Positions 16,484-39,763 are shown, counted from the first letter of the stretch. The stretch: DNA of 39,763 nucleotides from a candidate division WWE3 bacterium RIFOXYD1_FULL_39_9 (GCA_001773295.1 MEWG01000022.1:1-39763); one strand, 5' to 3'. Numbers and translations: made by a program. Notes: generated from the sequence alone by a model not told the origin.

Positions 16484-17701
16484 ATGTTAAAGTCGTACAA
16501 ATCGTTGTTCAAAATATCTCTAATAAGTACGGGTAATATTTTTAACTCCTTAATAGGCTTTGTCTATCTAACTGCCGCGGCAAAGTTTCTTACTCTTGAG
16601 GACTTTGGAAGATACAGTTTAATCACAAGTTTATTAGTTTCAATTTCGAAGCTTGTAGATTTTGGGACTAATTCTTTATTTGTTGCCAAATCTATCTCCA
16701 ATGAAGACAAAGAAATCTCGGACTTTTTTTATACTCTAAAAATTCTGCTGTTTTTTATAACTATTCCTATCTCGCTTCTCGCATTAAACATTCTTAAAGT
16801 TTTTGATCTTACAACATTTGTGCTTTTTGTTATCGGTTTAATTGCTTACACAATTAATTACACGTTTTATGCGATTTTTCAAAAAAACGAAAAATATGTT
16901 CAACTTATTTTGCTAAACACCATACCTGCAATTATTAAAGCTTTGTCAGCCGGTGGATTATTCTTAGGTCTGATCAAACCTGAAATAAATACACTTTTTG
17001 GAATTTTCGGTATGTCCATTCTGTCCAGTGTTCTGTTGCTACCGTTCATACCCAATAATTTAAGGAAATTTAAATTTCATGTCGGTAACTCAATTAAACT
17101 TCTAAGAGAGGCGCTCTCTCCGGGTCTTTCCTTGTTAATATATGAGGCCTGGCCGGCAATAAATAACGCTATTGCAAAGCTTTCAAGCGGTTTTGCAGAT
17201 GTTGGTGTATTTTCTTTGGCAAGTAAAATATCCAACGTGTTTTCCTTAATTTCTCTCTCGATATTTACAGTTCTGCTTCCAAAAAACGCTGAACGTAAAA
17301 GGGATAAACTTAGATATGACTTCAAAGAAACCATTTTATTATCAGTTCTTCTTTTAGTTCTTTCTTTTGCTGCAATTGTTGTCTCTGAATTGTTTATTCA
17401 AATTGTTTTTGGAAATAAATTTGAAGGCTCGCTTGGTTTGCTTGATATGTTAATTTTTGCAAGTGCGGTGACGGCAATTCAAAACTTTGTGGAAAATTAC
17501 TTTTATGTGGAGCAGCAGACAAAATATCTCGGTGGCATTAACACAACAAGATTACTTATGTTCCTTGTTTTTGCATTAGTACTAATTCCATCGTTACATT
17601 TAAAAGGACTTGCGCTTTCAAATCTTCTTTCAGCAATCATAGGAGTTGCAATCACCTCGCTAGTAATAAGGAAGTTAGAATCGAACCAACCCGCGATTTA
17701 G
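16484..17701 (+). CDS. wzx: Wzx-type polysaccharide flippase (MOP superfamily, Polysacc_synt-like)
   Basis: About 405 aa and hydrophobic throughout. The N-terminal pattern (SLISTGNIFNSLIGFVYLTAAAKFLTLEDFGRYSLITSL...DFGTNSLFVAKSI) is typical of O-unit flippases. The ORF track starts at TTG 16448; I prefer the ATG at 16484. Confidence 0.75.
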   Translation: MLKSYKSLFKISLISTGNIFNSLIGFVYLTAAAKFLTLEDFGRYSLITSLLVSISKLVDFGTNSLFVAKSISNEDKEISDFFYTLKILLFFITIPISLLALNILKVFDLTTFVLFVIGLIAYTINYTFYAIFQKNEKYVQLILLNTIPAIIKALSAGGLFLGLIKPEINTLFGIFGMSILSSVLLLPFIPNNLRKFKFHVGNSIKLLREALSPGLSLLIYEAWPAINNAIAKLSSGFADVGVFSLASKISNVFSLISLSIFTVLLPKNAERKRDKLRYDFKETILLSVLLLVLSFAAIVVSELFIQIVFGNKFEGSLGLLDMLIFASAVTAIQNFVENYFYVEQQTKYLGGINTTRLLMFLVFALVLIPSLHLKGLALSNLLSAIIGVAITSLVIRKLESNQPAI

Positions 17702-20556
17702 AATTTCACACCTGGGATTTTACCGGCTGCCTCTAATTCGGAAGGTAAATACCACAAAACCCAATCTCCATCTTCTTTTATAACAATCGGTTTATAACCA
17801 TATCCCTCAACCTTTTCACTATATCTGCCTTTCTTGGTCACTAGAATCAATCGCTCTGTTTCTTTAGCAACTTCCGGCACTCTCGATCCCACATCTGGTA
17901 CAAAATCGATAATCGTAAACGGGCTGTCAGTATAGAAAAGTGCCAACGGAACTTCAATTCTGTCTAGAAATACCTGTTCTTTAGTTCCAAAAACCTTGTC
18001 TTTATGTACCATTAGTCTGGCCTGTGAACCGGTTAAATCTGAGGTATAAACAAGCTTCCTATTCAAGAATAAGTAAAACAACGAAGAAACAGTAATCACA
18101 TAAATCAACAGTGCTTTTACAACAACAGAATCATACTTTGGATATCTTCTGAAAAACCAACTCATTGAGTCCGTAATAAATCTTCCAATAATAATAGCTG
18201 CTACCGGATATATCGGCGTGATGTACCACACAAGCTTGGATTGCGCAGCTGAGAAAAATGTAAAGACAAATATTAACCAGACTGCTAAGAATATTGAAAC
18301 GCGCTCTTTGTACTTTACGATCTTATAGAATAAGTAGACCAACGAAGGAATTAAAATTACAAACCATACTCTCATACTTACTTTCAACACAATCAAATAC
18401 CAATAAAACGGCCTGCCCTTATCTTCTATGGCACTAAATGCTCTGTCGAAAACGTGGTAGCCGATATAGTTATCTACAAAACTTACTCCGTAAAGCTGAT
18501 ACATTCTAATATGCCAAGGAAGTGCGATTGCTAAACTTCCGAGCAAAAATATGAGTAGTCCGTTAACGGCTGATCTATCAAACTTTTTGTTAATGATAAT
18601 TTGTACTAACTCAAATACAAAAACAACCGCAAATGGAATAAATCCGACTACGCCTTTTGTCATAACCGCTAATCCCATGAACAGACCTGATATTAGATAC
18701 GCTACCCACGCGCGCGACGGTTTCCAACAATAATACAAATAAAGTGCTGTTAGTATAAAAAAGCCGCAAGTTACGTCCAACATTGAAGCCCGTGAGTAAT
18801 ATAAAAATTGAGCTGTTGTTGCAATCGATAAAGCCGCAAGAAACGCCGATGTTTTATTAAAAATGCGTTTTGCGAAGATATAAGTAAAAACAATCGTTAA
18901 AATACCGAAAATTGCAGAAGGTAGCCTTACCGCTAAACTAGTGTATCCAAGCAGCTTCATAGATCCGGCAGCCATCCACATATATAAAGCAGGCTTCTCG
19001 TACCATTCCTTATCCGTCCACCATCTCTGAGTAATATAATCGCCCGTCGTGATCATGTTTTTGGCAATTTTTGAGTAGATTGCCTCATCCCAAGGTATGA
19101 GATGTGTGGAATTTAGCCCGATACCAATCAAAGTAACTGAGATAATCAAAATAGTAATGACTGCAAGTTTATTAGACCTTATGAATACAGATAAAACCTC
19201 TCTCAACGAAGATTGGGATTTCACAACGTTTAAGCCGTAAAGATAAAAAAGAACTATAACAATCCAAAAAAACTCTGAGTTAAATGAATAAAATATTCCA
19301 CCTATCATCCAGCCTATCAGAACAGAGAACATCGCAGTCGATAGAAGAGATTTTTCCAAGGTCTGACCGTGAAGCGCACCGTATAACAAAACTGCACTTA
19401 ACACAAAAATTAAGAGGGCGTACGTGGACAGTCCTAAGATACCTGTTTCTGCAATCAACTCTCCCCAAATTGTATGGGCAGGCACTCTTGTATTTAATCC
19501 GGCAGGATCTCTACTAAAATAAACTGGAGCAATTTTAGTTTTATTAAAATGTTCAAAAAAACCTCCGTACCCACCGCCCAAAATTGGATATGCTTCAAAT
19601 ATTTGGTATGTGCCGGTAAGTAACAAAATATGTGAATCAAAAGAATCAAGTCGATAGTGGAAATATTGTTTTACTTTCGCTCTAAAAGGACTAGCCTTAT
19701 TCATGTACTCAATAACAAGAGGAGTACTCATCAAAATCAGGGAGAGAATCACAAGACCGATACCTTTTAAGCCAATCTTCCTGTACAAAAATAAAGACAC
19801 AAAGACAATTAGAGCAACGGCGTCGATGATCCAAGCGGTTCTGGAATTTGTAAGAAGCAGGCTAACTACAAAAGATACCGAAACTACAGCAAAAAAAAGC
19901 TTGCTCTTAACCTTCCTTTCTGTAAGAACAAGAACACAGGCAATAGGTAATAAGGCAGCTAACAACGATCCGTAGTGATTAACATCCCAGAAAGTCGAGC
20001 CTATCCTTGGAATGTTACCAGGAATATTCCACAACGCGCCAATTATTTTTCCTGTCGTTTCGTATAAGAAATATTGGAAGTAACCGAACAAAGTCAGCAA
20101 AAATACAATGACTATATAAAACTTCAGATGTTTGAGAATAAGTTCCTGTCTTTCAGAATAAAAGTTTTTTAGATATACGGCTAAAACAACAACTGTAGAA
20201 AAAAACCCATATAATAGAACAGATGATTTGAGATTCCACGAAAAAAATATTGAAAGTCCCCGAATTGCCCACAGTAAAATTAGTAAAATCAAAACCGGGT
20301 CGTTCAACAGCTCTTTAACTTTGGCGATGTCTTTTTTTATAAAAAGTAAATACACCAACGTAGCAACTCCTGCGGCCAGAAGTGAAAACATAAAGGCTCT
20401 AATTGGCATAAGATCCCAAATAAAGAAACTAAACAGCTCTTTGTGAAGTAAAACCGAAAGAACAAACAAAACTAAAACAGCAATATCAAATCTTTTAACA
20501 ATCAGAATATAAGAGATGATGAATATTAGGGCTATTGAAACAATTTCTAGGTTCAT
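17698..20556 (-). CDS. fusion protein: N-terminal Wzy_C (O-antigen ligase/polymerase-like) domain plus C-terminal PMT_2/ArnT-like GT-C glycosyltransferase domain
   Basis: Residues about 1-450 (19210-20556) carry RIGSTFWDVNHYGSLL, TNSRTAWI, YPILGGGYGGF and AHTIWGELIAETGILG, the Wzy_C hallmarks. Residues about 460-952 (17701-19180) carry WDEAIYSKIAKNM..TGDYI...WYEKPALYMW...RLPSAIFG, the GT39/GT83 PMT_2 hallmarks. I verified that WDEAIY maps to 19075-19092. Confidence 0.8.
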   Translation of the reverse strand: MNLEIVSIALIFIISYILIVKRFDIAVLVLFVLSVLLHKELFSFFIWDLMPIRAFMFSLLAAGVATLVYLLFIKKDIAKVKELLNDPVLILLILLWAIRGLSIFFSWNLKSSVLLYGFFSTVVVLAVYLKNFYSERQELILKHLKFYIVIVFLLTLFGYFQYFLYETTGKIIGALWNIPGNIPRIGSTFWDVNHYGSLLAALLPIACVLVLTERKVKSKLFFAVVSVSFVVSLLLTNSRTAWIIDAVALIVFVSLFLYRKIGLKGIGLVILSLILMSTPLVIEYMNKASPFRAKVKQYFHYRLDSFDSHILLLTGTYQIFEAYPILGGGYGGFFEHFNKTKIAPVYFSRDPAGLNTRVPAHTIWGELIAETGILGLSTYALLIFVLSAVLLYGALHGQTLEKSLLSTAMFSVLIGWMIGGIFYSFNSEFFWIVIVLFYLYGLNVVKSQSSLREVLSVFIRSNKLAVITILIISVTLIGIGLNSTHLIPWDEAIYSKIAKNMITTGDYITQRWWTDKEWYEKPALYMWMAAGSMKLLGYTSLAVRLPSAIFGILTIVFTYIFAKRIFNKTSAFLAALSIATTAQFLYYSRASMLDVTCGFFILTALYLYYCWKPSRAWVAYLISGLFMGLAVMTKGVVGFIPFAVVFVFELVQIIINKKFDRSAVNGLLIFLLGSLAIALPWHIRMYQLYGVSFVDNYIGYHVFDRAFSAIEDKGRPFYWYLIVLKVSMRVWFVILIPSLVYLFYKIVKYKERVSIFLAVWLIFVFTFFSAAQSKLVWYITPIYPVAAIIIGRFITDSMSWFFRRYPKYDSVVVKALLIYVITVSSLFYLFLNRKLVYTSDLTGSQARLMVHKDKVFGTKEQVFLDRIEVPLALFYTDSPFTIIDFVPDVGSRVPEVAKETERLILVTKKGRYSEKVEGYGYKPIVIKEDGDWVLWYLPSELEAAGKIPGVKF

Positions 20557-21689
20557 CTGGTAGATAATAACTTATTATATATTTCTAACGTCTTTTGGGC
20601 AGCATTTTCCCATGTATATTCTTGCTTAGTGTGTTCATCTACAACCGGTCGCGGCGCGTAAAACTCTCTCTTCAATGCGGTTTTAATAGAATCAATGTCC
20701 CCGGGGTCGCAATATGACGCCATTTCACCTAGATACTCTCGAGCTCTATCCCCTGAAGCGACCGCGTTCGCACCGCTTAGAATAGCTTCAAGACTTGTCA
20801 AACCGGTTGTTTCAAACCAACTGGCGGAAACACCGACTTTAGCAAAATGGTAGAAAGATGGCATATCCGCGTAAGGAACTGAATGTATATGTGTAATCCA
20901 CGGATTAGAAGATAAAGCTAAGTTAAATTTCCAATTATACTCAAAATGTTTATTTCCCGATTTGCTCCCTATAATAACTAACCTCAGGTCCTCTTTAGTC
21001 TCTTTTCTGAGTCTGGACACCGCTTCTATAATACTGAGCTGATTTTTTCTCGGCTCTACCCTACCGACACATATTATGTAATTCGAAAAACCAAGAGTAT
21101 TCGCATACTCACTTGAAGTTAAAAAGTTCTTGGAGACACCGTTACACACTTTAGCCCAGGAAAAATCTACGTTATAAGTATTTTTAAGATCTTCCGCTTC
21201 TCTAGTTGTTTGAACCAAAACGTAATCGGCCATTTGCAAAGTCTTCCTATGCATATTTTTAAAACCCAAAAAAATAGTTTTGAGAGTTGTGATGAATAAT
21301 TTGGGTTCAAATATTGATCTGTAGACGTCTTTAAAAACATCTCTGTGAAATTGATCTTTGAACAAAACTTTTGAAATTCTTCTAAAATCAAAAACGTACT
21401 CATTATCAAATCGCTGTACTTCTCTGACGCTGTGATGTATTGGGGACAAAACTAACGGTTTGCCGACTTTTTTAGCTCTCTGCGCCTGAAAATACGAGTC
21501 CGGATTCCAATCCAGCTGAAAAATATGAACTAGATCGTAACCTGAATAATCTACCTTGCTGTCATTTCCCAAACTTATATCTACACCGATACGTAACTTT
21601 CTCAACTCTTCGGCAGTGTTCTCAATCTGTATTCTATCTCCGCCAAGTCTATTTAATAGACCGCTGCGGCCTAGCAATAGCACTTTCAT
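20553..21689 (-). CDS. GT-B fold glycosyltransferase (GT4-like)
   Basis: MKVLLLGRSG...GGDRIQ, VGRVEPRKN and FETTGLTSLEAILSGANAVAS. There are 4-nt overlaps or 3-nt gaps with both neighbours. Confidence 0.8.
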   Translation of the reverse strand: MKVLLLGRSGLLNRLGGDRIQIENTAEELRKLRIGVDISLGNDSKVDYSGYDLVHIFQLDWNPDSYFQAQRAKKVGKPLVLSPIHHSVREVQRFDNEYVFDFRRISKVLFKDQFHRDVFKDVYRSIFEPKLFITTLKTIFLGFKNMHRKTLQMADYVLVQTTREAEDLKNTYNVDFSWAKVCNGVSKNFLTSSEYANTLGFSNYIICVGRVEPRKNQLSIIEAVSRLRKETKEDLRLVIIGSKSGNKHFEYNWKFNLALSSNPWITHIHSVPYADMPSFYHFAKVGVSASWFETTGLTSLEAILSGANAVASGDRAREYLGEMASYCDPGDIDSIKTALKREFYAPRPVVDEHTKQEYTWENAAQKTLEIYNKLLSTR

Positions 21690-21692
21690 GAT

Positions 21693-22838
21693 TTATTGAG
21701 CCTCCCTATATAACATCTCGTATTTATCAACAAATTTTTCCAAAGAATATTCATTCTTAACTCTATTATAAGCTTCATCTAAAACATAATTTTGAGATTT
21801 GAAAAGCTTGTATGTTTCGACAATTTTTATATAGAGATCGTCCATATCGCCGGTTTTAAAATATTTAACGGTATTTCCGGCGACCTCTTTTAATACTTCT
21901 AAGTCGCTACACACAACCGGATGTCTGGAGCTCATAGCCTCCACAAGCACGTAACCGAAACCTTCCGCAAGTGTAGGGAAAACAAACAGATCAATTGTTG
22001 CGTAAAATTTAACGTGATCCTCCTCATTAAATACTCCGGTAATAATTACTTTGTCGGCAATTCCTAAATTCTTAGTTAAATCTCTAAGTTCATTTTCCAA
22101 AACACCTCCACCTGCTAGTAACAAATAAAAATTATCTGAAATGTCACCGGACTTAACAAGTTTTGCAAAGGCGTTGATCAATATACTGTGTCCTTTCTCT
22201 TGCGACATGCGACTAACATTTCCTAAGATAAACGCACTGGATGGTACTTTGTAGCGTTGTAAAATTTCTTGTCGATACTCTCCAGAGCGCGATTGAAGAT
22301 CCTCATATTTTCTTAGATCTATCCCGTTATGAATAACTCTTAGTTTTTTTGGACGTATGCCTTCTTTTATTTTTACTGTTTTTCTTGATTCTGTTAAGGC
22401 AATTTCCGAAAAAGATAAAAGATTCACTAAAAAGGAGTACCAGAAAATAACAAAAGGTCTGATTAATCTCTTTACTGGAACGGACTCTTCCCACTCGGAA
22501 ATTGGTGTGTGCACATGAGTAATTCTGGCCCTAACTCCGGCAATTGAAGCTGCTAATAAAGCGTTAGAAGCCGCCTTCAGCTCGTGCGAATGTACAACTT
22601 GTATCTTATGTTTCTTCAAAAAAATTATAAGCTCAAGAATATAAAACGGGTCGATATCAAAATGTAATTTCTTAATAAAAACTCTGGCACCTTTACTTTT
22701 GTACGCATCAACAAGCTCTCCTTCTCGGCACCACACAAAGACAAAATGTCCTTTTGCCACCATACCCTCGACCAAATCAAGAACATGCTTTTCCATGCCG
22801 CCAAAATTACCTGAGTCTAATGTATATAAAATATTCAC
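21693..22838 (-). CDS. GT-B fold glycosyltransferase (GT4-like)
   Basis: MNILYTLDSGNFGGMEKHVLDL (GT4 N-terminal domain), VSRMSQEKG and AEGFGYVLVEAMSSRHPVVCSDLEVLKEV (E-x7-E). Confidence 0.85.
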   Translation of the reverse strand: MNILYTLDSGNFGGMEKHVLDLVEGMVAKGHFVFVWCREGELVDAYKSKGARVFIKKLHFDIDPFYILELIIFLKKHKIQVVHSHELKAASNALLAASIAGVRARITHVHTPISEWEESVPVKRLIRPFVIFWYSFLVNLLSFSEIALTESRKTVKIKEGIRPKKLRVIHNGIDLRKYEDLQSRSGEYRQEILQRYKVPSSAFILGNVSRMSQEKGHSILINAFAKLVKSGDISDNFYLLLAGGGVLENELRDLTKNLGIADKVIITGVFNEEDHVKFYATIDLFVFPTLAEGFGYVLVEAMSSRHPVVCSDLEVLKEVAGNTVKYFKTGDMDDLYIKIVETYKLFKSQNYVLDEAYNRVKNEYSLEKFVDKYEMLYREAQ

Positions 22839-24040
22839 TTTTTCTTAAACTCCAAATCTATAAGTTCGAGAAGATTGCTAACTTTTCCGGTCCAACTATT
22901 TTCTTTTGCAACTTTTTGACGTTCCTTTATTCGGACATCATTATCCTCCTCTAAGGCTAGTCGAATATTTTGCACAAACTCATTATGACTCTTCGAGATA
23001 TAGCAAACATCTTCAAACGGTTGGTAGGCAGGGAGGTCTGTGACAACCACCGGAAGTCCGGCGGCCAATCCTTCGTGGAATTTAACCGGAAAACATCCTC
23101 CCACGGTATAGTCATTCAATTGATAAGGAATAATGTAAACGTCAAAGCCTGCAAAGTAGTCCGGCATCTTTTTGTAGGGCTTGGTTCCCAAAAAATATAC
23201 GTTACCAAGATCTGCCATACCGATCTCCTCGATAGTTCCCTCTCTATCTTTTAGCGCAATGGGGCCAATAATCACAATCGAGTAGTTTGGATATGCTGAA
23301 GCAACTTTACGCATCAACGATCGATCAAACTTGTACTCATCTATTGCACCGGTAAATGCGATCACGGGTTTTGGAATTGACTTCAAATCATCCGGAATAT
23401 TTTGTTTGTTATTTCTCGAATTTTGAAATAGTTCATAATCACCGACATTTGGCGTGTAATGTATGTTGGTATTATATTTAGAAAGTTTATCGACCAAACC
23501 CGGAGCGGTTGCAAAAACAATATCTGCACGTCGGGCCAGTATTTCCTCTTGTTTATTAACAGCAGCTTTTTTTTCTTTCGTATCGTATTTTGGAAAACCC
23601 GCGTAGTTATCTACACAATCATAAATTAATAGATCGTGCTGAATACTTTTAATATAGTTGTCTATTCCAGGAATTTCAACATTGTAAATCCACATAACTG
23701 TTCTTTGTTTTTTGGTAAACCATCTGCCTGATATCTGTCTTATTTTCCAGGCATGAATTTTTGAAAGAAAATTGTAAAATGGCAAAAAGTTTAATGGAGA
23801 AATTATTTTTACTGTCCCTTCTGAATATTCCCAAGTAAGAAGACGCCTTAAACTCCATTTTTTGTTAAGGACCTGTCTCAAAAAAAGTCTACCTGTATTT
23901 ATCGGGGGGTCCACAAATACAACGCTATGTCCCTGTTCTGCTAATCTGGTCATAACGTGCTTTTTGTTCGTCCATAAAGGATAATCCCACAGTTGATTTG
24001 AAAAACATATTATGTTGTACTTCTCATTTTGGTTGTCCAT
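22835..24040 (-). CDS. GT-B fold glycosyltransferase (TuaH-like group-1 variant)
   Basis: The N-terminus (YNIICFSNQLWDYPLWTNKKHVMTRLAEQGHSVVFVDPP) and the C-terminal FPVKFHEGLAAGLPVVVTDL (the K..EY/H..G.PVV variant of the group-1 motif). Confidence 0.7.
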   Translation of the reverse strand: MDNQNEKYNIICFSNQLWDYPLWTNKKHVMTRLAEQGHSVVFVDPPINTGRLFLRQVLNKKWSLRRLLTWEYSEGTVKIISPLNFLPFYNFLSKIHAWKIRQISGRWFTKKQRTVMWIYNVEIPGIDNYIKSIQHDLLIYDCVDNYAGFPKYDTKEKKAAVNKQEEILARRADIVFATAPGLVDKLSKYNTNIHYTPNVGDYELFQNSRNNKQNIPDDLKSIPKPVIAFTGAIDEYKFDRSLMRKVASAYPNYSIVIIGPIALKDREGTIEEIGMADLGNVYFLGTKPYKKMPDYFAGFDVYIIPYQLNDYTVGGCFPVKFHEGLAAGLPVVVTDLPAYQPFEDVCYISKSHNEFVQNIRLALEEDNDVRIKERQKVAKENSWTGKVSNLLELIDLEFKKK

Positions 24041-31999: not shown

Positions 32000-32339
32000 T
32001 TTCCGATTCAGGTTTATCGAAAATCAACTCACGCGTCCTTTCGATGACCAGAAATATTAAAAAGTAAAAAACTATTACAGAAAAGTTCGCACTGGCAAAG
32101 TCTCTTCCTATCATTAAGAAGAAGGGCATAAATAAGACAAAAATAACACCAAATACAATCAGAGCCTTACCTTCAGAATCAATTTTCCTACCGGACAGAT
32201 ACCATAATATAAATAACACTAATTGAACTACTTCCAGAGGTGTCCTAACAAAAACCGACAACGCAATTAAGAAGATGGTCAGAAAAGAAAATATTACAAA
32301 ATTAAATTTTTCCACTTGTATCTTAGTTTTTGTCAGCAT
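31980..32339 (-). CDS. small membrane protein (about 4 hydrophobic segments), unknown function
   Basis: 119 aa. Its start overlaps the 1185-aa gene by 17 nt and its end overlaps the 995-aa gene by 20 nt. It is hydrophobic with a K/D/N-rich tail. Residues about 40-119 align colinearly with the 80-aa ORF. Confidence 0.55.
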   Translation of the reverse strand: MLTKTKIQVEKFNFVIFSFLTIFLIALSVFVRTPLEVVQLVLFILWYLSGRKIDSEGKALIVFGVIFVLFMPFFLMIGRDFASANFSVIVFYFLIFLVIERTRELIFDKPESENANKDK

Positions 32340-35300
32340 TGTTTTTTCTTAATTTATTAAATACGGTAACCCAGATAAGATATAACGCACTCAAACCAAT
32401 TATTGCAGTTGAAATTACTATTCCTATGTAAAATAATCTCTGAGCATTAAATTCAACGATTAATTCTAACTTTCCGTCCTTTGCATATTCGTCAGAAATT
32501 AGCCAGCCATTAGAAAAGCCGTTGGCAATGTAGTGCTTATCGGACGCAACTTTATCGAGCCCCACAGTCTCAAAGAGTTCCCCTAATATCGACGTCTTAC
32601 TTAAAATATTTTCTTCATGTCTATATAACTGCCACTCCTTACTAAAACTTTCACTGAAAACTAAGTAGAACGGACTCTGAATATCTGTGATATTTAATTT
32701 GTACTTAGTTGGATTTATAGAAATAAACTCTATCTTTGGCGTATGTATCTTAGCTTGGTTACTTGCATTAAATTTTCTTATGATTATTTTTGGATCGGGG
32801 ACTTTTTGGACTTTAATATTTTTTATCTCTATATCGCTAAAATTATTTTTACCCGAAAAACCATAAATAAACAAATATCCGTTCACAGTATCTTCCGATG
32901 ATGTAAAAGTTTTTTTATAGGTACTCCAACCATCATTGTTTGGCGAAATGACTGACACATCTCTATCGATAACTGCGTCAAACAAAATCTTTCTCACAGT
33001 CGGGATTTGTTCTATATCCAGGATTTTTTTCTCCTTGGATTTCCCGACTATATCCTCGACTAAAGCTATCGCTGCTTTTCCGCTGTTGAGTTTGTAGTCA
33101 AAAGATACTGCATATCTGGTATTTGAAATCCAACTGTCAATTCTTTTGTATTTTGACGGCTGGGCCCCAAAAAGCTGAGGTCTTAACTTAATACCACTCG
33201 TGTCTTCTTCGAATGTTTTGTACTCTAGCCACTCTTCTCCGATAAGAAGGTTTGGAGTTTCATGGAATTTTATATTTAATCTAACAGGAGTTCCCGGCTC
33301 AAATTCAAAACTTCCAATTTGGATAAAATTTCCATTAACTTGACCCAAGGAGTTTAACTCAACAGTACGAACGACTTCGTTACCGTTATTTGTTACCACA
33401 GTTAATTTATCAATTGTATGATTAGGAACATTCTTATCGAAACTCTTGTTATCAATGAGAATGTCGTACTTATCTGGTTTATTAACTGTGAATCGGTAAC
33501 AAAAATCTGAGCAATTTTTATCAGATATCTCGCTAGCCCACTCTTGGAATTTCTTAAGAGAGTTTGCAAAAAGCTCTCTAAGTTTTGGGTCTGTTCCATA
33601 TTCAGAATAGTGTCTTAATAAGTAGGATTGAGTAGTTGTTACTAATCCTTTGTACATTCTTCCTCTTGCTTCAGTAGGTATCCCAGACAACATCTCTATT
33701 GTTTCATCTAAACTCGAGGTGTACGCAGCCACACTTTCATGGCTGTCGATCAAATTATACTTGCTCAATTCGTAGGCACGTTTGTTAAGATGTATAAGTT
33801 TTAACTGAATTTTTCTTATCGGGTTCTTCTCCTTTGCTAAAGATAGCTCCTCTTTAATCACCCTTAGCCGGTATTGAATAGTGTATGGGTTGTAGTCAGC
33901 GGCAGGTGATTTCCAGTCAGTTGACCAAAATCCTTCTATCGACAGATCCATCGGAGATATCTCCTCGACAGGATAGTAGATATAATCAATGTCAGTTTCA
34001 TTCAAAACACCTGCTGACTTTCCCAACACAAACTGCTGGTTCACAGAGTAATCATCGAGAGAGAATATATACGGCAAGGCGGCAATCTTTCCGTTGATTA
34101 CTTTTGTTCTCTCGGGAGCATAAAAAACCGGTAAAGTGTGAGCACTATCTATCTTGTACATTTTAATAAAATCATTTTCAAAATAGCTGTGAATTAGATT
34201 CTGACGCTCCAGTTCCTCCATCTTTGAACCTGACTGCACAATAAAACCATCTTCCACATCAAAGTGGTAGATAATGTCCGATACATTAAAGTACGGAAGC
34301 ATTCTTACATACCAGATCGGAGGAATATTTAGAGTATTTAAGCTTTGAGTCGGGTTAAAATCTTCTAAGACATACATTGAAGAATTCTGGGCTATAGTCG
34401 GTCTATTGAAATAATTCTCAGTTGGATTTACACCAATTAACTTCCACTTTGGGTAATTAACCCAGGCTATTGTATTGAGCGGACTATGTGGCAATGCCTG
34501 TAACTTAGTTACCGTTGGGTCTGAATTTACAATATCATAGACATCCTTATACGCATCTGGAACTTTCACAAGACCTGAAAAATCGGCGGTCAGATAATCC
34601 TCCTTTTTGGCAAAATTGATTGAGTAAACCTTCTGGATACCGCCAATATAAAAAGGAAGCGGAGCAGTTGAAATAAACAAGATAAAAATTAAAAATATCG
34701 CACTATTTTTTAAACGTTCCGGGATAAAACCATACAAGGAAGTAAGAAATACGAAGGGCATAAATATGGCAACTTTTTCATAACTCCTTAAAGCCGGAAT
34801 AAATGGAATTTTGAATAATAGCATGGAGAGATCTCCAAAAGGGGGCTGGCTCTTTTTAAGCAAAAGCATAAAAATTACACCCACCAAAAGTATTGAGATC
34901 GAAAGTTTGTGACTCTCGTCTTTTATTTTTCTTTGGGAGGTCAAGAATATAAGTAGCATGGCTATCGGCAGGAATCCAACTACGTACCAGATCTTGAAAC
35001 CATATTTCACAGGGAAAAAGTCCGGGTAGCGCTGCATTCCCATATAAATCGAGAGTAAATCCGCAGATTGCGAATCAAGCCAGCTCTTAAGGTCAAAAAC
35101 TCCACTCACAAGACTTGTAATACCCTCATTCACAAATACCAGCGTCGGCATCAACCAGACACAAATTACTAGCAACGACGTAATGCCTAGCGCCAGTAAT
35201 GAGGCGATAAACTTCTTTGTGACCTTTACCAAACCTGTCAAAAGTAACGCTAGAGTAAAAAGTCCCATAAAGATCACTAATGCGAAGAAAAACGCACTAT

Positions 35301-35880
35301 TACCGAATCCGACCATCGAAACACCTAATAATATAAGGTAGACTGCTAAACTCTTTAAGTTTGGGGACCTTAAATACTTATAAAAATAGGCAATAAGCAA
35401 GGGTAAAGGTATATATAAAAAAACCTGATGTGAAAACCCCCAAGTATAAGTAAAAAAATAAAGGGTAGTCAGATTTAACGCGTACAAGAGTGAAAAAAAA
35501 GACTGAAGAAGTGGTTTATCTTTACCGAACAGTATCCTCAACATCCAAAAAAACGATACGTAGGATAAAAAAAGGAACATGCTAAAAACAAAGGAAAGTA
35601 TCTGAGAGTCGGTAAGTCCTGCCATTGACGGTAATAAGTATAAAAATAGGTAGTAGGGCAAAGTCGGATACCAGCTGAAAAAACCTCCCTCGCCGCCTGC
35701 GCCTATCCTATTATTCCAAGTGTAATAAATGTGATGGAAAATGTTCTTTATGTTTACCGGCTGAGCGAAATCACCGCTTGTGTAAATGTAGCCCTCAGGA
35801 AACGTATTAACAAGCGTTACCCACGCCAATAATAATACCGGAATTAAAATTAACAATTTTTGATATCTTTTTAAGCCCAT
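32323..35880 (-). CDS. giant membrane protein, AftD/DUF3367-like GT-C architecture
   Basis: 1185 aa. An N-terminal block of about 420 aa has many TMs, with a first loop YTSGDFAQPVN...YTWNNRIGAGGEGGF and later ALRSYEKVAIFMPF. A soluble region of about 720 aa starts at VPDAYKDVYDIV. The protein ends HYIANGFSNGWLI... plus one C-terminal TM (LFYIGIVISTAIIGLSALYLIWV). Confidence 0.6.
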   Translation of the reverse strand: MGLKRYQKLLILIPVLLLAWVTLVNTFPEGYIYTSGDFAQPVNIKNIFHHIYYTWNNRIGAGGEGGFFSWYPTLPYYLFLYLLPSMAGLTDSQILSFVFSMFLFLSYVSFFWMLRILFGKDKPLLQSFFSLLYALNLTTLYFFTYTWGFSHQVFLYIPLPLLIAYFYKYLRSPNLKSLAVYLILLGVSMVGFGNSAFFFALVIFMGLFTLALLLTGLVKVTKKFIASLLALGITSLLVICVWLMPTLVFVNEGITSLVSGVFDLKSWLDSQSADLLSIYMGMQRYPDFFPVKYGFKIWYVVGFLPIAMLLIFLTSQRKIKDESHKLSISILLVGVIFMLLLKKSQPPFGDLSMLLFKIPFIPALRSYEKVAIFMPFVFLTSLYGFIPERLKNSAIFLIFILFISTAPLPFYIGGIQKVYSINFAKKEDYLTADFSGLVKVPDAYKDVYDIVNSDPTVTKLQALPHSPLNTIAWVNYPKWKLIGVNPTENYFNRPTIAQNSSMYVLEDFNPTQSLNTLNIPPIWYVRMLPYFNVSDIIYHFDVEDGFIVQSGSKMEELERQNLIHSYFENDFIKMYKIDSAHTLPVFYAPERTKVINGKIAALPYIFSLDDYSVNQQFVLGKSAGVLNETDIDYIYYPVEEISPMDLSIEGFWSTDWKSPAADYNPYTIQYRLRVIKEELSLAKEKNPIRKIQLKLIHLNKRAYELSKYNLIDSHESVAAYTSSLDETIEMLSGIPTEARGRMYKGLVTTTQSYLLRHYSEYGTDPKLRELFANSLKKFQEWASEISDKNCSDFCYRFTVNKPDKYDILIDNKSFDKNVPNHTIDKLTVVTNNGNEVVRTVELNSLGQVNGNFIQIGSFEFEPGTPVRLNIKFHETPNLLIGEEWLEYKTFEEDTSGIKLRPQLFGAQPSKYKRIDSWISNTRYAVSFDYKLNSGKAAIALVEDIVGKSKEKKILDIEQIPTVRKILFDAVIDRDVSVISPNNDGWSTYKKTFTSSEDTVNGYLFIYGFSGKNNFSDIEIKNIKVQKVPDPKIIIRKFNASNQAKIHTPKIEFISINPTKYKLNITDIQSPFYLVFSESFSKEWQLYRHEENILSKTSILGELFETVGLDKVASDKHYIANGFSNGWLISDEYAKDGKLELIVEFNAQRLFYIGIVISTAIIGLSALYLIWVTVFNKLRKNNADKN

Positions 35881-37193
35881 CTTATTCCGCTTTCCCGAGC
35901 TATCTTTTCCAGAACAGGTAAAAAGGCTTTTTTATAGTCCAGCTCTGACGAAAAGTCCAAAACCCCCGATTTCAACCTTTTATATAGGATATCATCTGTA
36001 AGGCATCTGACAACAATATCAGCAAGTATTTTAGGGTCATTTTCTCCCATTAAACCGGCGTTTTTGGACTCAATAATTGATCCGACCAAGGGACCGCCTT
36101 TAGTCATTAGAACCGGTATTCCAAGTTTTATGTACTCTTTAGGCTTAGAGGGTTCGGAAAATAAAGAAACGTTATCCGCTTCTGGTCTATAAAGCGCTAA
36201 CCCTAGTTTTGCAGGTAAAAGTAATCTTTGGGCATCTTGCATGTCCGGAACATAGCCAAAAAACTCTACGTTAGCTTCAATTCCTAAGTCTTCTGCCATT
36301 TTCTTATATTTTTCTACGGTTAGGGAACCGCCGCCAACCACTAAAAGTCTTATATCAGGGAGCTGTCTTTTAACCTCTTTTACGGTTTGAAGCGACATGT
36401 CCATTCCGGCGTTGGAGTCCAGTCTGCCGATATACGCAAGCACATTACCATCTCTATGATATCCAGAGTATTTAATAACTTCTTCACTCTCTAATAATAT
36501 CGTTGGGGAAACAATAGAATCTCTGTTTTCAAAACCATGATCCAAATCCCATTTTTTACATATCTCACTTGGATACCAAACAAGATCGTTTTTTTCGCCC
36601 AGACTTCGTAACAAATACTGTATTCTGATAAAAAATCTGTCGACTTTTAATAGTAATTTCTGAGCCACCTTTTTTCCGAAGCCGGCGTCAGAATTTGGCC
36701 CAGAAGATATCTCAAAGTAAAAAGGTTTATTGCTATTTAAAGATGGCAAAGCGTCTCCGTTCATATAAACACTGTACTTAACTATTCCCAGTAATTTTAA
36801 GGCATACATTACAGCTGAACCGAACTGAGTCTCACCGATACCAACATCAAATTTTTTGTCATCGCTTTTTAACAGCAAAACAAATAAAAATATAATATTC
36901 AAAAAATATTGAAAGGCGAAAACTAAAAATAACGGAAATGGGAACCAAACGGAAAAGTTAAAATCTTTCCTTGTACCATCCGAATTAATAACAAACGATT
37001 CCATCAAAAACCGATTTTTCATCGGTCTTACCGATGGTAATTTAAAAATAGTAAAGTTAGCTAATTCGTTTTCCCTTACATATTTTTCAAGGTAGTTTAA
37101 CGGGGGAGTGCCATAAAAATTTACTAAATATAGAAATGAAGGTTTACGTGACTCTTTTACCTCATGCAGGCTGTCTTTAAGTTCATTTGTCAT
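35871..37193 (-). CDS. membrane-associated GT-B-like glycosyltransferase
   Basis: 440 aa. A hydrophobic segment (VWFPFPLFLVFAFQYFLNIIFLFVLLL) lies in the N-terminal half. The C-terminal half has LLVVGGGS...FFGYVP... and PSKPKEYIKLGIPVLMTKGGPL (the group-1 K..EY..G.PV motif). Confidence 0.65.
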   Translation of the reverse strand: MTNELKDSLHEVKESRKPSFLYLVNFYGTPPLNYLEKYVRENELANFTIFKLPSVRPMKNRFLMESFVINSDGTRKDFNFSVWFPFPLFLVFAFQYFLNIIFLFVLLLKSDDKKFDVGIGETQFGSAVMYALKLLGIVKYSVYMNGDALPSLNSNKPFYFEISSGPNSDAGFGKKVAQKLLLKVDRFFIRIQYLLRSLGEKNDLVWYPSEICKKWDLDHGFENRDSIVSPTILLESEEVIKYSGYHRDGNVLAYIGRLDSNAGMDMSLQTVKEVKRQLPDIRLLVVGGGSLTVEKYKKMAEDLGIEANVEFFGYVPDMQDAQRLLLPAKLGLALYRPEADNVSLFSEPSKPKEYIKLGIPVLMTKGGPLVGSIIESKNAGLMGENDPKILADIVVRCLTDDILYKRLKSGVLDFSSELDYKKAFLPVLEKIARESGIRWA

Positions 37194-37812
37194 CCTTCAC
37201 CGCCTCCATTATGAGATAGATCTCGGCAGCTCCACCAACCCAATAACACCAAAATCTTTCGAAGATTTCCGGTGATACATTTATTAAAGCGTTCATAAAA
37301 AGGATGAATGGTTTCAAAATATAACCAACTAAAGGAGGCCAATCGGGTTTTACAATATATTTCATGTACCAATCCTCATTGGGCCATGTGTAAAAGTATC
37401 TTATCTTTCTGGTTAAAATATTAAATCTAACGCCGGAATATCCCCACTTTTTATAATCTCGCTGGGCATCGAAAATATCAAATGCGTAAATTGAAAAGGC
37501 TTTCTTGTGGGTTATATCTCCCCATGCGTATAAACTTGAAAAATGCGGGACCCTTAAATAAAATATTCCGCCCGGTTTTAGAATCCTATGAAGCTCTTCA
37601 ATTGCTTTTATTGAATCATCTAAATGCTCTAGCACATGATATAAATGAATTTCATCAGCATAATTGTCTGGAAACGGATATGGATAATTATTTAAATTGT
37701 GAACAACATCTACGGTTTCTTTTCTTGGTATTACATCTACACCTATTGAACCTGGAATTCTTGAACCGTTGCAGCCAAAATTTATAATCACCTTGTCTTG
37801 TTTATTTTCCAT
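37183..37812 (-). CDS. class I SAM-dependent methyltransferase
   Basis: 209 aa. Motif I-like INFGCNG..IPGSIGVD, acidic post-I DVVHNL, YHVLEHL and ELHRILKPGGIFYLRVPH (Methyltransf_11/23-type pattern). Confidence 0.75.
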   Translation of the reverse strand: MENKQDKVIINFGCNGSRIPGSIGVDVIPRKETVDVVHNLNNYPYPFPDNYADEIHLYHVLEHLDDSIKAIEELHRILKPGGIFYLRVPHFSSLYAWGDITHKKAFSIYAFDIFDAQRDYKKWGYSGVRFNILTRKIRYFYTWPNEDWYMKYIVKPDWPPLVGYILKPFILFMNALINVSPEIFERFWCYWVGGAAEIYLIMEAVKDDK

Positions 37813-37818
37813 ATAAAT

Positions 37819-38949
37819 TTAATTATAAAACAAATGTGGGTACAAATTGTCCAACAATTTTGCTTTATCGAATTTCATAGACCATTCTAATGCATTTTTA
37901 CTATACTGCACATACCTTTCCCTATCGTTTATTAAGTCTTTTACTGCAGCAATAAATTCCTCCTCATTTTTAACCATAACACCGGCATTTTCCTCTTCTA
38001 GCTCGTGACAAGTTGAAACCACGTCATTACAAATTGTCGGCAATCCTGACGCTGCATATTCCCTTATTTTCAGTGAATCTGCATATCTTTCAAATTGGTT
38101 CTTGCCCTCGTACCATGCTAAGCCGATGGCACACTTAGATAAAATTTCTATATTCTTTTCGTACGATACCAAACCAAAGCACTTTACGTGATTGGCGTTC
38201 TTGTTTTTATTAATTTTTTCTTTTGCAGAGTCAGATACATTTCCTGCCAAGTGTAAAGAGCAGCTTTGATCCACTTTTAACGCTTCCTCGACTACTTTTA
38301 ACATAAGGTCTATCTCCAGGTCACTGATAAAAGATTTGGTGTAAATTAAATCTCCGGGTTTCTTGTTTTCGATCTTAATTTTTGGAATATTGTTAAATTC
38401 AGGGGAATTAGGTAAAAAGTATAAGAATCCTTTTGCTTTTCCATTTGTCATCTCGCCGATCTTTATCTCAGCTTTTCTGCTAACAAAAGTTACAACGTCT
38501 GCATTCATGACGGCGAATTTATATAGCTGATTGTAAATAAAATCAAGAGTCGGATTGGAAAATCTACTGTCCGAATAATCAACAGAGTGGAAGTGTATTC
38601 GTAATTCAGGTCTAATTACAAGCTTGGTAACCCAAGCACCGAAAAAATTAAGCGGATCGACCGCAAGTATATATGTTAAATCTGATAGCTTGATCAGCTC
38701 TAATATATTTACGATTACTTCCTGCGGCCATCTAATTGGGCCGCTACCCAAAAGATTGATTGCCCTTTCTTGGTCCCCGATCCTTACAAATGTTGGACCG
38801 CTTGTGTTAAGAGGGTGCTCAACATAAATAGGAGCGTGTCCCTTAGATTCAAGATACCTCACAATGTAATCCGCACCGCCTTTTTTAATTGTAGCTCCGC
38901 TATATAGTCGGTGAACGAGAACTGCAAATTTTTCCTTATTTTGATCCAT
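37819..38949 (-). CDS. GT-B-like glycosyltransferase (group-1 variant)
   Basis: 376 aa. The C-terminal SLKIREYAASGLPTICNDV motif is of the same K..EY..G.P type as 22835-24040 and 35871-37193, and the size is typical of GT-B enzymes. Confidence 0.6.
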   Translation of the reverse strand: MDQNKEKFAVLVHRLYSGATIKKGGADYIVRYLESKGHAPIYVEHPLNTSGPTFVRIGDQERAINLLGSGPIRWPQEVIVNILELIKLSDLTYILAVDPLNFFGAWVTKLVIRPELRIHFHSVDYSDSRFSNPTLDFIYNQLYKFAVMNADVVTFVSRKAEIKIGEMTNGKAKGFLYFLPNSPEFNNIPKIKIENKKPGDLIYTKSFISDLEIDLMLKVVEEALKVDQSCSLHLAGNVSDSAKEKINKNKNANHVKCFGLVSYEKNIEILSKCAIGLAWYEGKNQFERYADSLKIREYAASGLPTICNDVVSTCHELEEENAGVMVKNEEEFIAAVKDLINDRERYVQYSKNALEWSMKFDKAKLLDNLYPHLFYN

Positions 38950-39763
38950 AAGCTCGATTCCAAGATTCTATTAAAAAAATACGCCAAAGTAGATATTCTT
39001 TTTGCTGTTGTAATACTTTAAAATCCGTCGGTTCAAATAAATCTTCCAATGCAGAAACAGTCATCAATTTTTGTGAAACCGAATTAGCGCTAAAAGCATA
39101 ATCGCGTACTTTATCAAGATTTGCTTTTAATACATCGTCCATCGGCATCAAGAAACCTCGCTTTTTTCTTGCAACAATTTCTTCAGGTAAATATTTCTTA
39201 GCAACTTCTCTTAATATATATTTTTCATTTATATTTCTCATGCTCTGAACTGAACCTTTGAGCTTGAATTGGCTTGGCAGACTGTAGACAAACTCGACTA
39301 CTTTATGGTCAAGATATGGAACACGAGCTTCAACAGATGCGGCCATTGTGCCTTTGTCCACTTTCATTAGTAAGTGATTAGACAGTTGAACATTTAACTC
39401 TACAGAAGAAATATTTCTGAACATATCCTCGTTATAGTTCTCAATGTATTTCTGGTGCCAGATATCGTAGTAAAATTTTGGATTAAAAGTAATATTTCTG
39501 GACAAAGCATAATAATACAGCGCAGACACAACTCTGTTTGGCATCACTGAATAAGGCAATTGAGAAAGACCGAACCATGAGTAACCTCCAAAAATCTCAT
39601 CAGAACCCTCCCCAAGCAAAACCACTGTCACCCCCTGACGTTTCAATTCAGTACACAAAATCTTAGTTGAAATCAGTCCGCCGTCAAACGAAGTTAGGTC
39701 GTCAAAATCCTTAATATAAGCTTCAATATTGTTGTTAATTACACCCGCATCAATTAATATTTC
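38936..39763 (-). CDS. asparagine synthase (glutamine-hydrolysing)-like amidotransferase, C-terminal synthetase part; gene continues past the right edge
   Basis: VVLLGEGSDEIFGGYSWF and the downstream helical region match the AsnB synthetase domain. The ORF-track M at 39658 is a TTG. I translated 39659-39763 in frame (EILIDAGVINNNIEAYIKDFDDLTSFDGGLISTKIL...) and found no stop, so the gene is truncated by the window. Confidence 0.8.
   Translation of the reverse strand, partial: EILIDAGVINNNIEAYIKDFDDLTSFDGGLISTKILCTELKRQGVTVVLLGEGSDEIFGGYSWFGLSQLPYSVMPNRVVSALYYYALSRNITFNPKFYYDIWHQKYIENYNEDMFRNISSVELNVQLSNHLLMKVDKGTMAASVEARVPYLDHKVVEFVYSLPSQFKLKGSVQSMRNINEKYILREVAKKYLPEEIVARKKRGFLMPMDDVLKANLDKVRDYAFSANSVSQKLMTVSALEDLFEPTDFKVLQQQKEYLLWRIFLIESWNRAYGSK

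Follow-up and report, generated by a model that had tools for sequence, protein, structure and literature searches.

The window analysed here is a 39,763-nt stretch of DNA from the candidate division WWE3 bacterium RIFOXYD1_FULL_39_9, a groundwater organism with a tiny genome; WWE3 ranks as a candidate phylum within the Candidate Phyla Radiation (CPR)/Patescibacteria. The part under study, positions 17698-39763, was extended left to position 330 and right on the source contig. We consider it probable that this region is the main transcription unit of a ~30-kb envelope-glycan locus of Wzx/Wzy type that carries unusually many extracytoplasmic GT-C glycosyltransferases (GTs), working along the pathway proposed below. 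The kind of system is familiar: the evidence supports a Wzx/Wzy-type locus joined to an Emb/Aft-like battery of extracytoplasmic GT-C enzymes, and provides a solid lead into CPR surface biology. New here are two or three GT-C families for which current databases hold no model, a conserved small partner protein, and a recurrent fusion of a Wzy_C domain to an ArnT-like domain.

The CPR/Patescibacteria account for a large part of bacterial diversity and have a lifestyle of attachment to other microbes, and their surface chemistry is essentially uncharted; a 2024 study of cultivated Saccharibacteria called glycosylation "unexplored". An excess of glycosyltransferases in WWE3 was noted by Kantor et al. 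2013 (PMC3812714), who suggested polysaccharides, glycoproteins, or a glycosylated S-layer. We found in the literature no description of the cluster or its families, and no assignment of the cluster to a characterised polymer. From the DUF4012 gene on its left to a dehydratase gene upstream of the window end, the locus spans ~32.5 kb, or ~3.8% of the 0.85-Mb contig (852,674 bp, the genome being at least that large). Together with the recurrence of its core blocks, this makes it testable candidate machinery for the main surface glycan.

Gene order and the large membrane proteins

The first-pass annotation of the window described 15 consecutive minus-strand open reading frames (ORFs), and the ORF listing reproduced all of them at the same coordinates (TM, transmembrane; AF2, AlphaFold2; SAM, S-adenosylmethionine):

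17698-20556, minus: fusion of Wzy_C and ArnT/PMT_2 domains, 952 aa, ~20 TM segments (Pfam, ArnT model)
20553-21689, minus: GT4, 378 aa (Glycos_transf_1 7e-16; order conserved)
21693-22838, minus: GT4, 381 aa (Glycos_transf_1 3e-27, Glyco_transf_4 5e-21; order conserved)
22835-24040, minus: GT4, 401 aa, first of a conserved triplet (Glyco_trans_1_4 2.7e-10)
24056-25759, minus: PMT_2-type GT-C, 567 aa (PMT_2 7.7e-11, 42.9 bits)
25732-27114, minus: PMT_2-type GT-C, 460 aa (PMT_2 29.2 bits, cutoff 26.1; LA_3751/3752 putative GT family 3.6e-18)
27144-28757, minus: GT-C of a Patescibacteria family without a database model, 537 aa (AF2 model, Foldseek, hhalign)
28773-29015, minus: membrane partner of the 995-aa GT-C, 80 aa, 2-3 TM segments (4-nt overlap with the stop of its large neighbour; TTG start, AGGAG upstream)
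29012-31999, minus: second AftD-like GT-C, 995 aa (hhalign, Pfam matches of relatives)
31980-32339, minus: membrane partner of the 1185-aa GT-C, 119 aa, 4 TM segments (17-nt overlap with the stop of its large neighbour; homologs in the same place elsewhere)
32323-35880, minus: AftD-like GT-C, 1185 aa (AF2 model, Foldseek, family alignment)
35871-37193, minus: GT4, 440 aa, one N-terminal TM segment (Glycos_transf_1 4.8e-17; TM-like segment at residues 80-98)
37183-37812, minus: SAM-dependent methyltransferase, 209 aa (Methyltransf_11 3.6e-10, Methyltransf_23)
37819-38949, minus: GT4 (GT-B fold), 376 aa (Glycos_transf_1 2e-11; beside AsnB in related loci)
38936-39763 (window end), minus: AsnB-type glutamine amidotransferase, C-terminal 275 codons (593 aa on the source contig; Pfam Asn_synthase 1e-43)

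Pfam bore out the domain labels given earlier (AsnB, five GT4 enzymes, one of them with an N-terminal TM segment, a SAM-dependent methyltransferase, two PMT_2 proteins, and the Wzy_C and PMT_2 fusion). The nine start/stop overlaps that had been claimed were confirmed by script as 4, 4, 28, 4, 20, 17, 10, 11, and 14 nt; the gaps are 3, 15, 29, 15, and 6 nt, so that none exceeds 29 nt, as had been stated. ATG is the first in-frame start in 12 of the 14 complete genes. The 28-nt overlap (25732-25759) rests on a GTG start, and the ATG three codons on still gives an overlap of 19 nt. No plus-strand ORF of the region exceeds 115 aa, and all are nested within the long minus-strand ORFs. Six polytopic proteins add up to 4,696 codons (~4,700 in the earlier description), i.e., 14.1 of 22.1 kb.

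On the source contig, the co-directional run goes four genes past the window end, to 19 genes and ~28 kb, the widest gap being 57 nt. The four upstream genes code for a methyltransferase, a short-chain dehydrogenase/reductase (SDR) of the dehydratase/epimerase type, a thiamine pyrophosphate (TPP) enzyme, and an aminotransferase. The boundaries drawn in the first-pass annotation are too narrow, since the locus goes on at both sides. Promoter- and terminator-like sites were scanned as consensus matches, with a consensus not calibrated for CPR promoters. In this weak test they were not enriched over shuffled sequence (45 vs 57.6±7.1, 6 vs 12.5±3.6; 37 vs 35.3±6.0, 9 vs 7.1±2.5), and no internal punctuation stood out; nothing therefore argues for splitting the unit.

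The operon had been described as dominated by GT-C-type membrane enzymes. Its six large membrane proteins contain 7-20 TM-like segments as judged by hydropathy, and the AF2 models show ~11 TM helices plus an outer domain. The GT-C assignment was obtained from Pfam, above gathering thresholds, for three of them (the 567- and 460-aa proteins and the fusion), from AF2 models and Foldseek searches for the 1185- and 537-aa proteins, and from hhalign profile links and the Pfam matches of relatives for the 995-aa protein. None of the six turned out to be a transporter or to have an unrelated fold, and a GT-C fold is supported for all of them.

In direct sequence searches, the 1185-, 995-, and 537-aa proteins had no match in Pfam, NCBIfam, or PDB sequences. 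Their families are small, with 19, 11, and 34 clusters, respectively, among 5.8 billion at the sensitivity of the word-indexed search that was used. The corresponding alignments comprise 19 (A1), 12 (A2), and 34 (A3) sequences.

The 1185-aa protein, 100% identical to a hypothetical protein of RIFOXYD1_FULL_39_9, has an N-terminal domain of ~11 TM segments, an outer region with alpha/beta, helical-bundle, and beta-sandwich parts, and a single C-terminal TM anchor. Its AF2 model (pLDDT 77, pTM 0.70) matched AftD best (PDB 6w98; E 1.3e-13, probability 1.0, TM-score 0.45/0.41), followed by STT3, AglB, PglB, and ALG12. The alignment to 6w98 is full-length, with beta-sandwich regions at residues 790-1144. 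Among relatives, there is one homolog with a carbohydrate-binding module (CBM) match, CBM_4_9, and there are weak Golvesin_C matches. Residue D37, in the first outer loop, is invariant in the 19 sequences.

The 995-aa protein is built in the same way, from a TM domain, a large outer domain, and one C-terminal TM segment. Comparison of A1 with A2 by hhalign gave a probability of 99.9% (E 4e-31, 832 columns); by this profile evidence, the 995-aa protein is a distant paralog of the 1185-aa protein. The Pfam AftD family (PF11847, GT-C_AftD) was matched by 3 of the 12 members of the 995-aa family (best 2.3e-6) and by none of the 19 members of the 1185-aa family; neither window protein itself matched it at E ≤0.01. 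Across the 12 sequences, E34 and the segment REPYAKF (371-377) are invariant, and E35 is at least 90% conserved.

The 537-aa protein and its 34 relatives gave no Pfam or NCBIfam match. Its AF2 model (pLDDT 89, pTM 0.88) returned GT-C enzymes for all of the top 21 Foldseek matches (STT3 at 7e-6, ArnT, AftD, DPY19, AglB, PglB, AftA, Pmt4), and transporters scored below a probability of 0.15. By hhalign, the 537- and 995-aa families are linked at 93% (E 3.5e-7). D11 is at least 90% conserved across the 34 sequences. The family opens with a conserved M-x-I-x-GGLDDQ, its first hydrophobic segment starts at residue ~55-63, and the usual TM1 ahead of the GT-C catalytic loop appears to be absent from all 34 relatives. 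The idea that the 80-aa protein supplies this missing TM1 was weakened by locus L007 (labels of compared loci are explained below), where a 537-type gene directly follows a partnerless giant gene, and by locus L009, where an 84-aa partner is followed by a 460-type gene. A precomputed PF19830 tag on two relatives of the 537-aa protein was not reproduced with current Pfam.

The six polytopic proteins carry acidic motifs, after TM1 in five of them and N-terminally in the 537-aa protein: SGD37F (1185 aa), GE34E35F (995 aa), NDDW (567 aa, in the context INDDW), SEDT (460 aa), WDE (after the first TM segment of the C-terminal half of the 952-aa protein), and GGLDDQ (537 aa). The DD, ED, and DE pairs of the 567-aa, 460-aa, and 952-aa C-terminal domains thus all lie after TM1. 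The three families without a database model also have in common an R-x3-[KR] loop motif (RSYEK, REPYAK, FRVTxR). Judged by sequence and secondary structure rather than by superposition on solved enzymes, the acidic motifs appear to sit where GT-C enzymes carry their catalytic Asp/Glu.

The 567-aa PMT_2-type protein has ~10 TM segments. In the 952-aa protein, the N-terminal half carries Wzy_C (226-379, 47.8 bits) and the C-terminal half carries PMT_2 (521-666, 69.3 bits; PMT_2 and PMT together ~517-687), with residues 467-838 matching the ArnT model (1.8e-31). Against 1.84 billion representative proteins, it gave 487 matches at E ≤1e-30. Among the best 150 clusters, ~34 align in one stretch over both halves, and the others are ArnT-like or Wzy_C proteins that stand alone. 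An assembly artefact is therefore not the explanation, and the fusion is an architecture that recurs. Pfam Wzy_C takes in O-antigen ligases, protein O-oligosaccharyltransferases, and polymerases alike.

Each of the two largest proteins (giants) is encoded just ahead of a small membrane protein. In the compared loci, labelled with L-numbers (L001, L005, L009, and so on, L001-L004 being source-contig variants) and gathered by exact-protein look-ups and pattern scans, a 119-type ORF lies directly 3' of 1185-type giant genes in L006, L009, L011, L012, and L034, and an 80-type ORF occupies the same position in L005/L019/L020, L009, L021, L027, and L034. The partner ORF is located within -20 to +13 nt of the stop of the giant gene in the window (twice), L009 (twice), L005-type loci, L021, L027, L012, L006, L011, and L034; one further partner, in L035, is cut by the contig end. 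Identity to the L034 orthologs is 58% for the 80-aa protein, 52% for the 119-aa protein, and 54% for the giant. Nucleotide differences between the 80-aa partner gene and its L034 ortholog are distributed 25/18/50 by codon position, a bias that indicates purifying selection. On this comparative sequence evidence, the small partners are real genes.

The two partner types are related to each other (BLASTP E 0.001; hhalign 78%, E 2e-5), and in both a G-[RN]-x3-A-E loop precedes the last TM segment. Ten partner sequences searched against Pfam at E ≤10 gave scattered noise matches and no family, and NCBIfam likewise gave nothing usable for the 119- and 80-aa proteins; GtrA (PF04138) and SMR/EamA-type flippases, considered as identities for the partners, found no support in this search. 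Every giant of both families ends in one C-terminal TM segment with a tail of at most 24 aa. A Rosetta-stone search of 31 family members and 26 locus ORFs found no giant fused to a partner and none with an AftD-like multi-TM C-terminus. Shorter distant giants have no partner. We infer a physical or functional partnership between giant and small protein and speculate that the partner may stand in for the acyl carrier protein (ACP)-binding C-terminal bundle of AftD.

Distant shorter relatives of the 1185-aa protein (27-30% identity, 766-894 aa, no small partner) were seen in L014, L016, and L017. The metagenome-assembled genomes (MAGs) concerned are labelled Ca. Magnetomicrobium (Nitrospirota), Pseudomonadales, and Bathyarchaeota; the archaeal gene appears broken into several ORFs.

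Framework genes and conservation of gene blocks

The composition of the cluster had earlier been called one that could not be named. This changes when the genes to its left are taken into account:

16448-17701, plus: Wzx-type (MOP/Polysacc_synt) flippase (Polysacc_synt 3.8e-15, 56.5 bits, cutoff 28.2; MurJ 7e-5; at least 8 TM segments)
15265-16407, minus: GT4 (Glycos_transf_1 1e-25)
14137-15273, plus: GT4 (Glycos_transf_1 4e-31)
12986-14095, minus: GT4 (Glycos_transf_1 2e-24)
12305-12949, minus: initiating polyprenyl-phosphate phosphoglycosyltransferase (Bac_transf, small WbaP-C-terminal type), 214 aa (Bac_transf 4e-52)
10279-12246, minus: DUF4012 protein, 655 aa, single N-terminal TM segment (DUF4012 1e-20; topology)
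3022-4065, plus: LytR-CpsA-Psr (LCP) glycopolymer-peptidoglycan transferase (LytR_cpsA_psr 8e-30; NCBIfam LCP family, TagU/LytR-like)
330-1718, minus: phosphogluco/phosphomannomutase, hexose-1-phosphate supply (PGM_PMM_I-IV)

With the flippase, three GT4 genes, a WbaP-type initiating transferase, and the DUF4012 gene directly to the left, and the LCP gene beyond them, a Wzx/Wzy-dependent framework becomes recognisable. Since an initiating transferase, GT-B transferases, a flippase, and a Wzy_C domain are all encoded, this framework appears to be that of a Wzx/Wzy-dependent pathway. The 214-aa initiating transferase also matches the NCBIfam models EPS_sugtrans (2e-65) and WbaP (1e-56), and in L005 an ortholog (E 4e-96) comes after the fusion gene.

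The absences listed in the first-pass annotation were examined as well. That of a GT2-type polyprenyl-phosphate sugar synthase holds for the window ±10 kb. No Wzz/polysaccharide co-polymerase or tyrosine-kinase domain occurs in any window ORF (the DUF4012 protein has a single TM segment), which agrees with the stated lack of a chain-length regulator, and there is no ABC exporter in the locus. No UbiA/DprE-type genes were seen in the window. As to nucleotide-sugar pathway genes, of which the mutase at 330-1718 had been the one noted in the window, two tailoring genes, for the 4,6-dehydratase/epimerase-type SDR and the methyltransferase, are found just past its right end.

Comparison of neighbourhoods across related genomes, which had been proposed as a check, showed that block synteny recurs in independent Patescibacteria:

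L009, Saccharibacteria MAG: AsnB, GT4, GT4, 1185, [110 aa], 537, GT4, 995, [84 aa], 460
L005/L019: AsnB, GT4, 995, [71 aa], 460, GT4, GT4, GT4, Wzy_C/PMT fusion, GT4, Bac_transf
L007, WWE3 GWF2_41_45: giant, 537 ... 460, three GT4, fusion
L034: 119-type, 996, 82, 537, identical to the micro-order of the window

The recurring blocks are AsnB-GT4-giant-partner, giant-partner-537 type, and 460-three GT4-fusion-(GT4)-initiating transferase, and these core blocks recur from WWE3 to Saccharibacteria. The pair of AsnB and the 376-aa GT4 stands ahead of giant genes in L005, L009, L018, and L022. A homolog of the 209-aa methyltransferase lies immediately ahead of a 1216-aa giant in L006. The 460-aa protein precedes the GT4 triplet in L005, L007, and L009 (E ≤1e-150), orthologs of the 401-aa GT4 stand in the same order in L005/L007 (E ≤1e-150), and the fusion gene ends the cluster in L005 and L007, as it does here. 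Accessory content varies by locus and includes methyltransferases, GT2 enzymes, radical-SAM enzymes, and sugar-nucleotide enzymes; such variation is typical of surface-glycan loci. The 105 ORFs of related neighbourhoods include 22 SDR epimerases/dehydratases, 3 UDP-Glc dehydrogenases, 3 DegT proteins, and 16 GT2 enzymes.

Proposed pathway, alternatives, and known systems

The gene content, the GT-C folds, the conserved acidic and basic motifs, and the synteny are what the analysis shows; going beyond them, we infer the order of steps, donors, acceptor, and product as follows. The WbaP-type phosphoglycosyltransferase (12305-12949) would prime polyprenyl phosphate, and up to eight cytoplasmic GT4 enzymes would lengthen the lipid-linked oligosaccharide from nucleotide sugars. 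Some of the sugars may be modified by the dehydratase/epimerase, the methyltransferases, and the AsnB-type protein. The full-length AsnB gene (L001/L002) scored above the cutoff of NCBIfam asn_synth_AEB (448 bits) and is also similar to the exopolysaccharide amidotransferase of XrtA/PEP-CTERM systems; its product probably amidates a sugar carboxylate. The Wzx flippase (16448-17701) would then bring the unit across the membrane to its outer face, where the Wzy_C half of the 952-aa fusion may polymerise it or hand it to an acceptor. The ArnT-like half of the fusion, the 567-, 460-, and 537-aa proteins, and the two giants would add branches or extensions from polyprenyl-phosphate-linked sugars, each giant acting with its own small membrane protein (119 and 80 aa) and holding the growing glycan with its beta-sandwich domains, as proposed for AftD. 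The product would most likely be a branched heteropolysaccharide of the cell wall, which the nearby LCP enzyme, a candidate final ligase encoded 8 kb from the glycan genes, would link to peptidoglycan. The inference made earlier, of GT-C proteins engaged in the extracytoplasmic assembly or decoration of an envelope glycoconjugate, is thus supported by folds, Pfam matches, and profile links. Because Saccharibacteria have a near-identical block (L009) and genetics is now feasible there, these predictions are open to experiment.

Several observations weigh against this pathway. No GT2 polyprenyl-phosphate sugar synthase (GtrB/ArnC/Ppm1 type), GtrA-type flippase, or decaprenyl-phospho-arabinose pathway gene was found in the window ±10 kb, which leaves the donors for five GT-C domains unaccounted for. 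One of the ten GT2 genes inspected in related loci (L021 2076-2843) is ArnC/PgfS/AglJ/PpgS-like, with scores below NCBIfam cutoffs. The link of the LCP gene to the glycan genes is weak, since dcw, recO, and tRNA-synthetase genes stand between them. The Wzy_C match is above threshold, but the sequence does not separate polymerase, ligase, and protein O-oligosaccharyltransferase. The similarity of the giants to AftD is at the level of fold (~9% identity, TM-score 0.41-0.45), and profiles of the two families (A1, A2) do not reach AftD among PDB sequences. Finally, the case for a single transcript is built on gene spacing and on the consensus scan without CPR calibration.

The first alternative, protein O-glycosylation, we regard as rather unlikely. 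Here, the Wzy_C half would be an O-oligosaccharyltransferase of the PglL/PilO/WsaB type acting on S-layer protein or pilin, and the PMT_2 enzymes would glycosylate Ser/Thr or extend protein-bound glycans. The family memberships allow for this, as Wzy_C includes ligases and protein O-oligosaccharyltransferases and PMT_2/PMT are named after protein O-mannosyltransferases. The best matches of the 537-aa model are STT3 subunits of oligosaccharyltransferase, but the 537-aa family has no WWDxG-type oligosaccharyltransferase motif. According to the literature, CPR cells bear S-layers and abundant type IV pili, and O-glycosylation of Saccharibacteria pilins is predicted and unexplored; yet no S-layer, pilin, or sortase-substrate gene was found in the window ±10 kb. 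The window also has no chain-length regulator, as would suit this alternative. However, an LCP transferase and a DUF4012 gene are nearby, and the large beta-sandwich, CBM-like domains of the giants (CBM_4_9 in one homolog) suggest glycan over peptide acceptors.

A membrane-anchored lipoglycan, similar to lipoarabinomannan (LAM) or lipoteichoic acid, appears distinctly improbable. The GT-C enzymes would in that case extend a glycolipid anchor on the outside, and the product would stay in the membrane without ligation to peptidoglycan. The largest enzyme is structurally nearest to AftD, which serves both arabinogalactan and LAM, the LCP gene lies outside the operon, and ArnT-like enzymes do modify lipids. 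However, a WbaP-type initiator together with Wzx and Wzy_C indicates a polyprenyl-diphosphate-linked repeat unit rather than a glycolipid primer, and the window showed no synthase of a glycolipid anchor (PimA/LtaS/YpfP type). That the three unannotated large proteins are transporters, scaffolds, or inactive GT-C relics, i.e., passengers in a conventional GT4-based polysaccharide cluster, is very improbable: they lack Pfam and NCBIfam matches, the 537-aa family lacks the usual first TM helix, and no donor synthase was found nearby, but fold searches with the 1185- and 537-aa models gave high probability to GT-C enzymes alone (major facilitator superfamily and other transporters <0.15), invariant acidic/basic motifs stand at the expected positions in 19, 12, and 34 family members, and tight synteny with GT4, AsnB, and PMT_2 genes is kept over phylum-level distances.

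Several features of the proposed envelope-glycan pathway have counterparts in known systems. The giants resemble AftD (PDB 6W98; PF11847) in having an N-terminal multi-TM GT-C domain, a large outer region with beta-sandwich (CBM-like) modules, and a C-terminal anchor, and in the acidic residue conserved in the first outer loop (D37 etc.; D41 in AftD). In AftD, residues K39/D41 of this loop (EL1) and K361 are essential, and the C-terminal multi-helix membrane bundle binds acyl carrier protein (bioRxiv 10.1101/2019.12.22.885152). As in the Emb/Aft set that builds arabinogalactan and LAM, several GT-C enzymes would cooperate on one polymer. Unlike AftD, the giants have a single C-terminal TM segment in place of the ACP-binding bundle, are ~9% identical to it with no Pfam match of their own, and are followed by a gene for a separate small membrane protein. 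Moreover, the host, a monoderm-like CPR bacterium, has no mycolate envelope, and no decaprenyl-phospho-arabinose pathway genes were seen in the window. An AftD-type architecture, studied so far as a mycobacterial drug-target family, is thereby extended to distant monoderm-like bacteria.

Gram-positive Wzx/Wzy pathways, such as that of the pneumococcal capsule (CpsE, GTs, Wzx, Wzy, and the LCP ligase CpsA), are matched by the Bac_transf enzyme, the GT-B set, the Polysacc_synt flippase, Wzy_C, and LCP, all of which are in the window. In contrast to the pneumococcal type, the window encodes five GT-C catalytic domains on top of this set, has its Wzy_C domain joined to an ArnT-like GT-C, and lacks a chain-length or tyrosine-kinase module of the Wzz/CpsCD kind; the LCP gene lies outside the cluster, with a DUF4012 protein where a co-polymerase might be expected. 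DUF4012 is enriched in CPR and Gram-positive bacteria and occurs in a Bifidobacterium polysaccharide cluster (PMC6744442). Its gene adjoins that of the initiating transferase, a position where a co-polymerase or regulator might be expected.

In three-component systems (GtrA/GtrB/GtrC; CsbB/GtcA/YfhO; GacI-GacJ/GacK/GacL; PgfS/PgfM1/PgfM2), a GT-C enzyme decorates a wall polymer or protein outside the membrane from polyprenyl-phosphate monosaccharides, and small accessory membrane proteins are used, GtrA/GtcA being flippases and GacJ an activating subunit. The present locus differs in having neither a GT2 synthase nor a GtrA-family protein (window ±10 kb) and in its 119- and 80-aa partners, whose coupling is with the GT-C enzyme rather than with a GT2 synthase. 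The small membrane partner could represent a new class of accessory subunit for GT-C enzymes. As to ArnT/PMT_2, the C-terminal half of the fusion matches the ArnT model over 370 residues, and the 567- and 460-aa proteins pass the PMT_2 threshold; the ArnT score of the fusion is, however, far under the equivalog cutoff (109 vs 567 bits). Going by the CPR literature, this organism lacks a lipid A pathway, so the acceptor of the ArnT-like half must differ from that of ArnT.

We tentatively put forward a broader possibility, which goes well beyond the pathway above and which we hold as doubtful. Patescibacteria may build a branched, arabinogalactan-like wall heteropolysaccharide outside the membrane with lineage-specific GT-C families that lack database models; the AftD-like giants might then be two-subunit holoenzymes, the partner replacing the regulatory C-terminal bundle, and the glycan might be a major surface determinant of these obligate episymbionts. 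If so, the giants would be a previously unrecognised form of GT-C enzyme, and the glycan could matter for attachment to the host and for recognition by phages or the immune system.

Neighbouring genes and minor observations

No RNA genes were found in the window by Rfam and tRNA scans. G+C is slightly lower over the glycan genes (14001-39763: 0.34-0.38) than in the housekeeping left part (1-14000: 0.37-0.40); lowered G+C is a frequent pattern in surface-polysaccharide loci.

Two convergent gene pairs have overlapping stops: the fusion gene and the Wzx gene (17698-17701, 4 nt), and the GT4 genes at 14137-15273 (plus) and 15265-16407 (minus), which overlap at 15265-15273 (9 nt). There is therefore no space for terminators in either pair. 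Between the divergent pairs, at 14096-14136 and 16408-16447, merely ~40 nt are available to hold two promoters.

The aminotransferase and TPP enzyme that head the co-directional run were considered as sugar-tailoring genes. This was rejected, as they match aspartate aminotransferase and acetolactate synthase best, and genes for aspartokinase and aspartate-semialdehyde dehydrogenase adjoin; by sequence similarity and context, the two probably belong to amino-acid metabolism. In L001, the group of aspartokinase, aspartate-semialdehyde dehydrogenase, aspartate-aminotransferase-like, and acetolactate-synthase-like TPP enzyme genes (557-6189) adjoins the glycan operon. Amino-acid biosynthesis genes are unusual in CPR genomes.

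The source-contig variants, though otherwise identical, vary at strain level. The TPP enzyme comes as two pieces of 78 + 469 aa in L001 and is 602 aa long in L002-L004; the 440-aa GT4 is represented in L003 by a 425-aa variant without a Pfam match, with a 16-nt shift downstream; and in L002 the 80-aa partner is annotated with a length of 54 aa.

The ArnC/PgfS-like GT2 gene at L021 2076-2843, the sole candidate for a polyprenyl-phosphate sugar synthase seen among the related loci, is located 4.6 kb upstream of a giant gene of the 995 type with its partner. A DedA/VTT-domain membrane protein is encoded at L008 15744-16424, ~5 kb beyond the left end of the window. Members of this family have been implicated in the recycling or flipping of undecaprenyl phosphate, which would be relevant to a locus with a high demand for lipid carrier.

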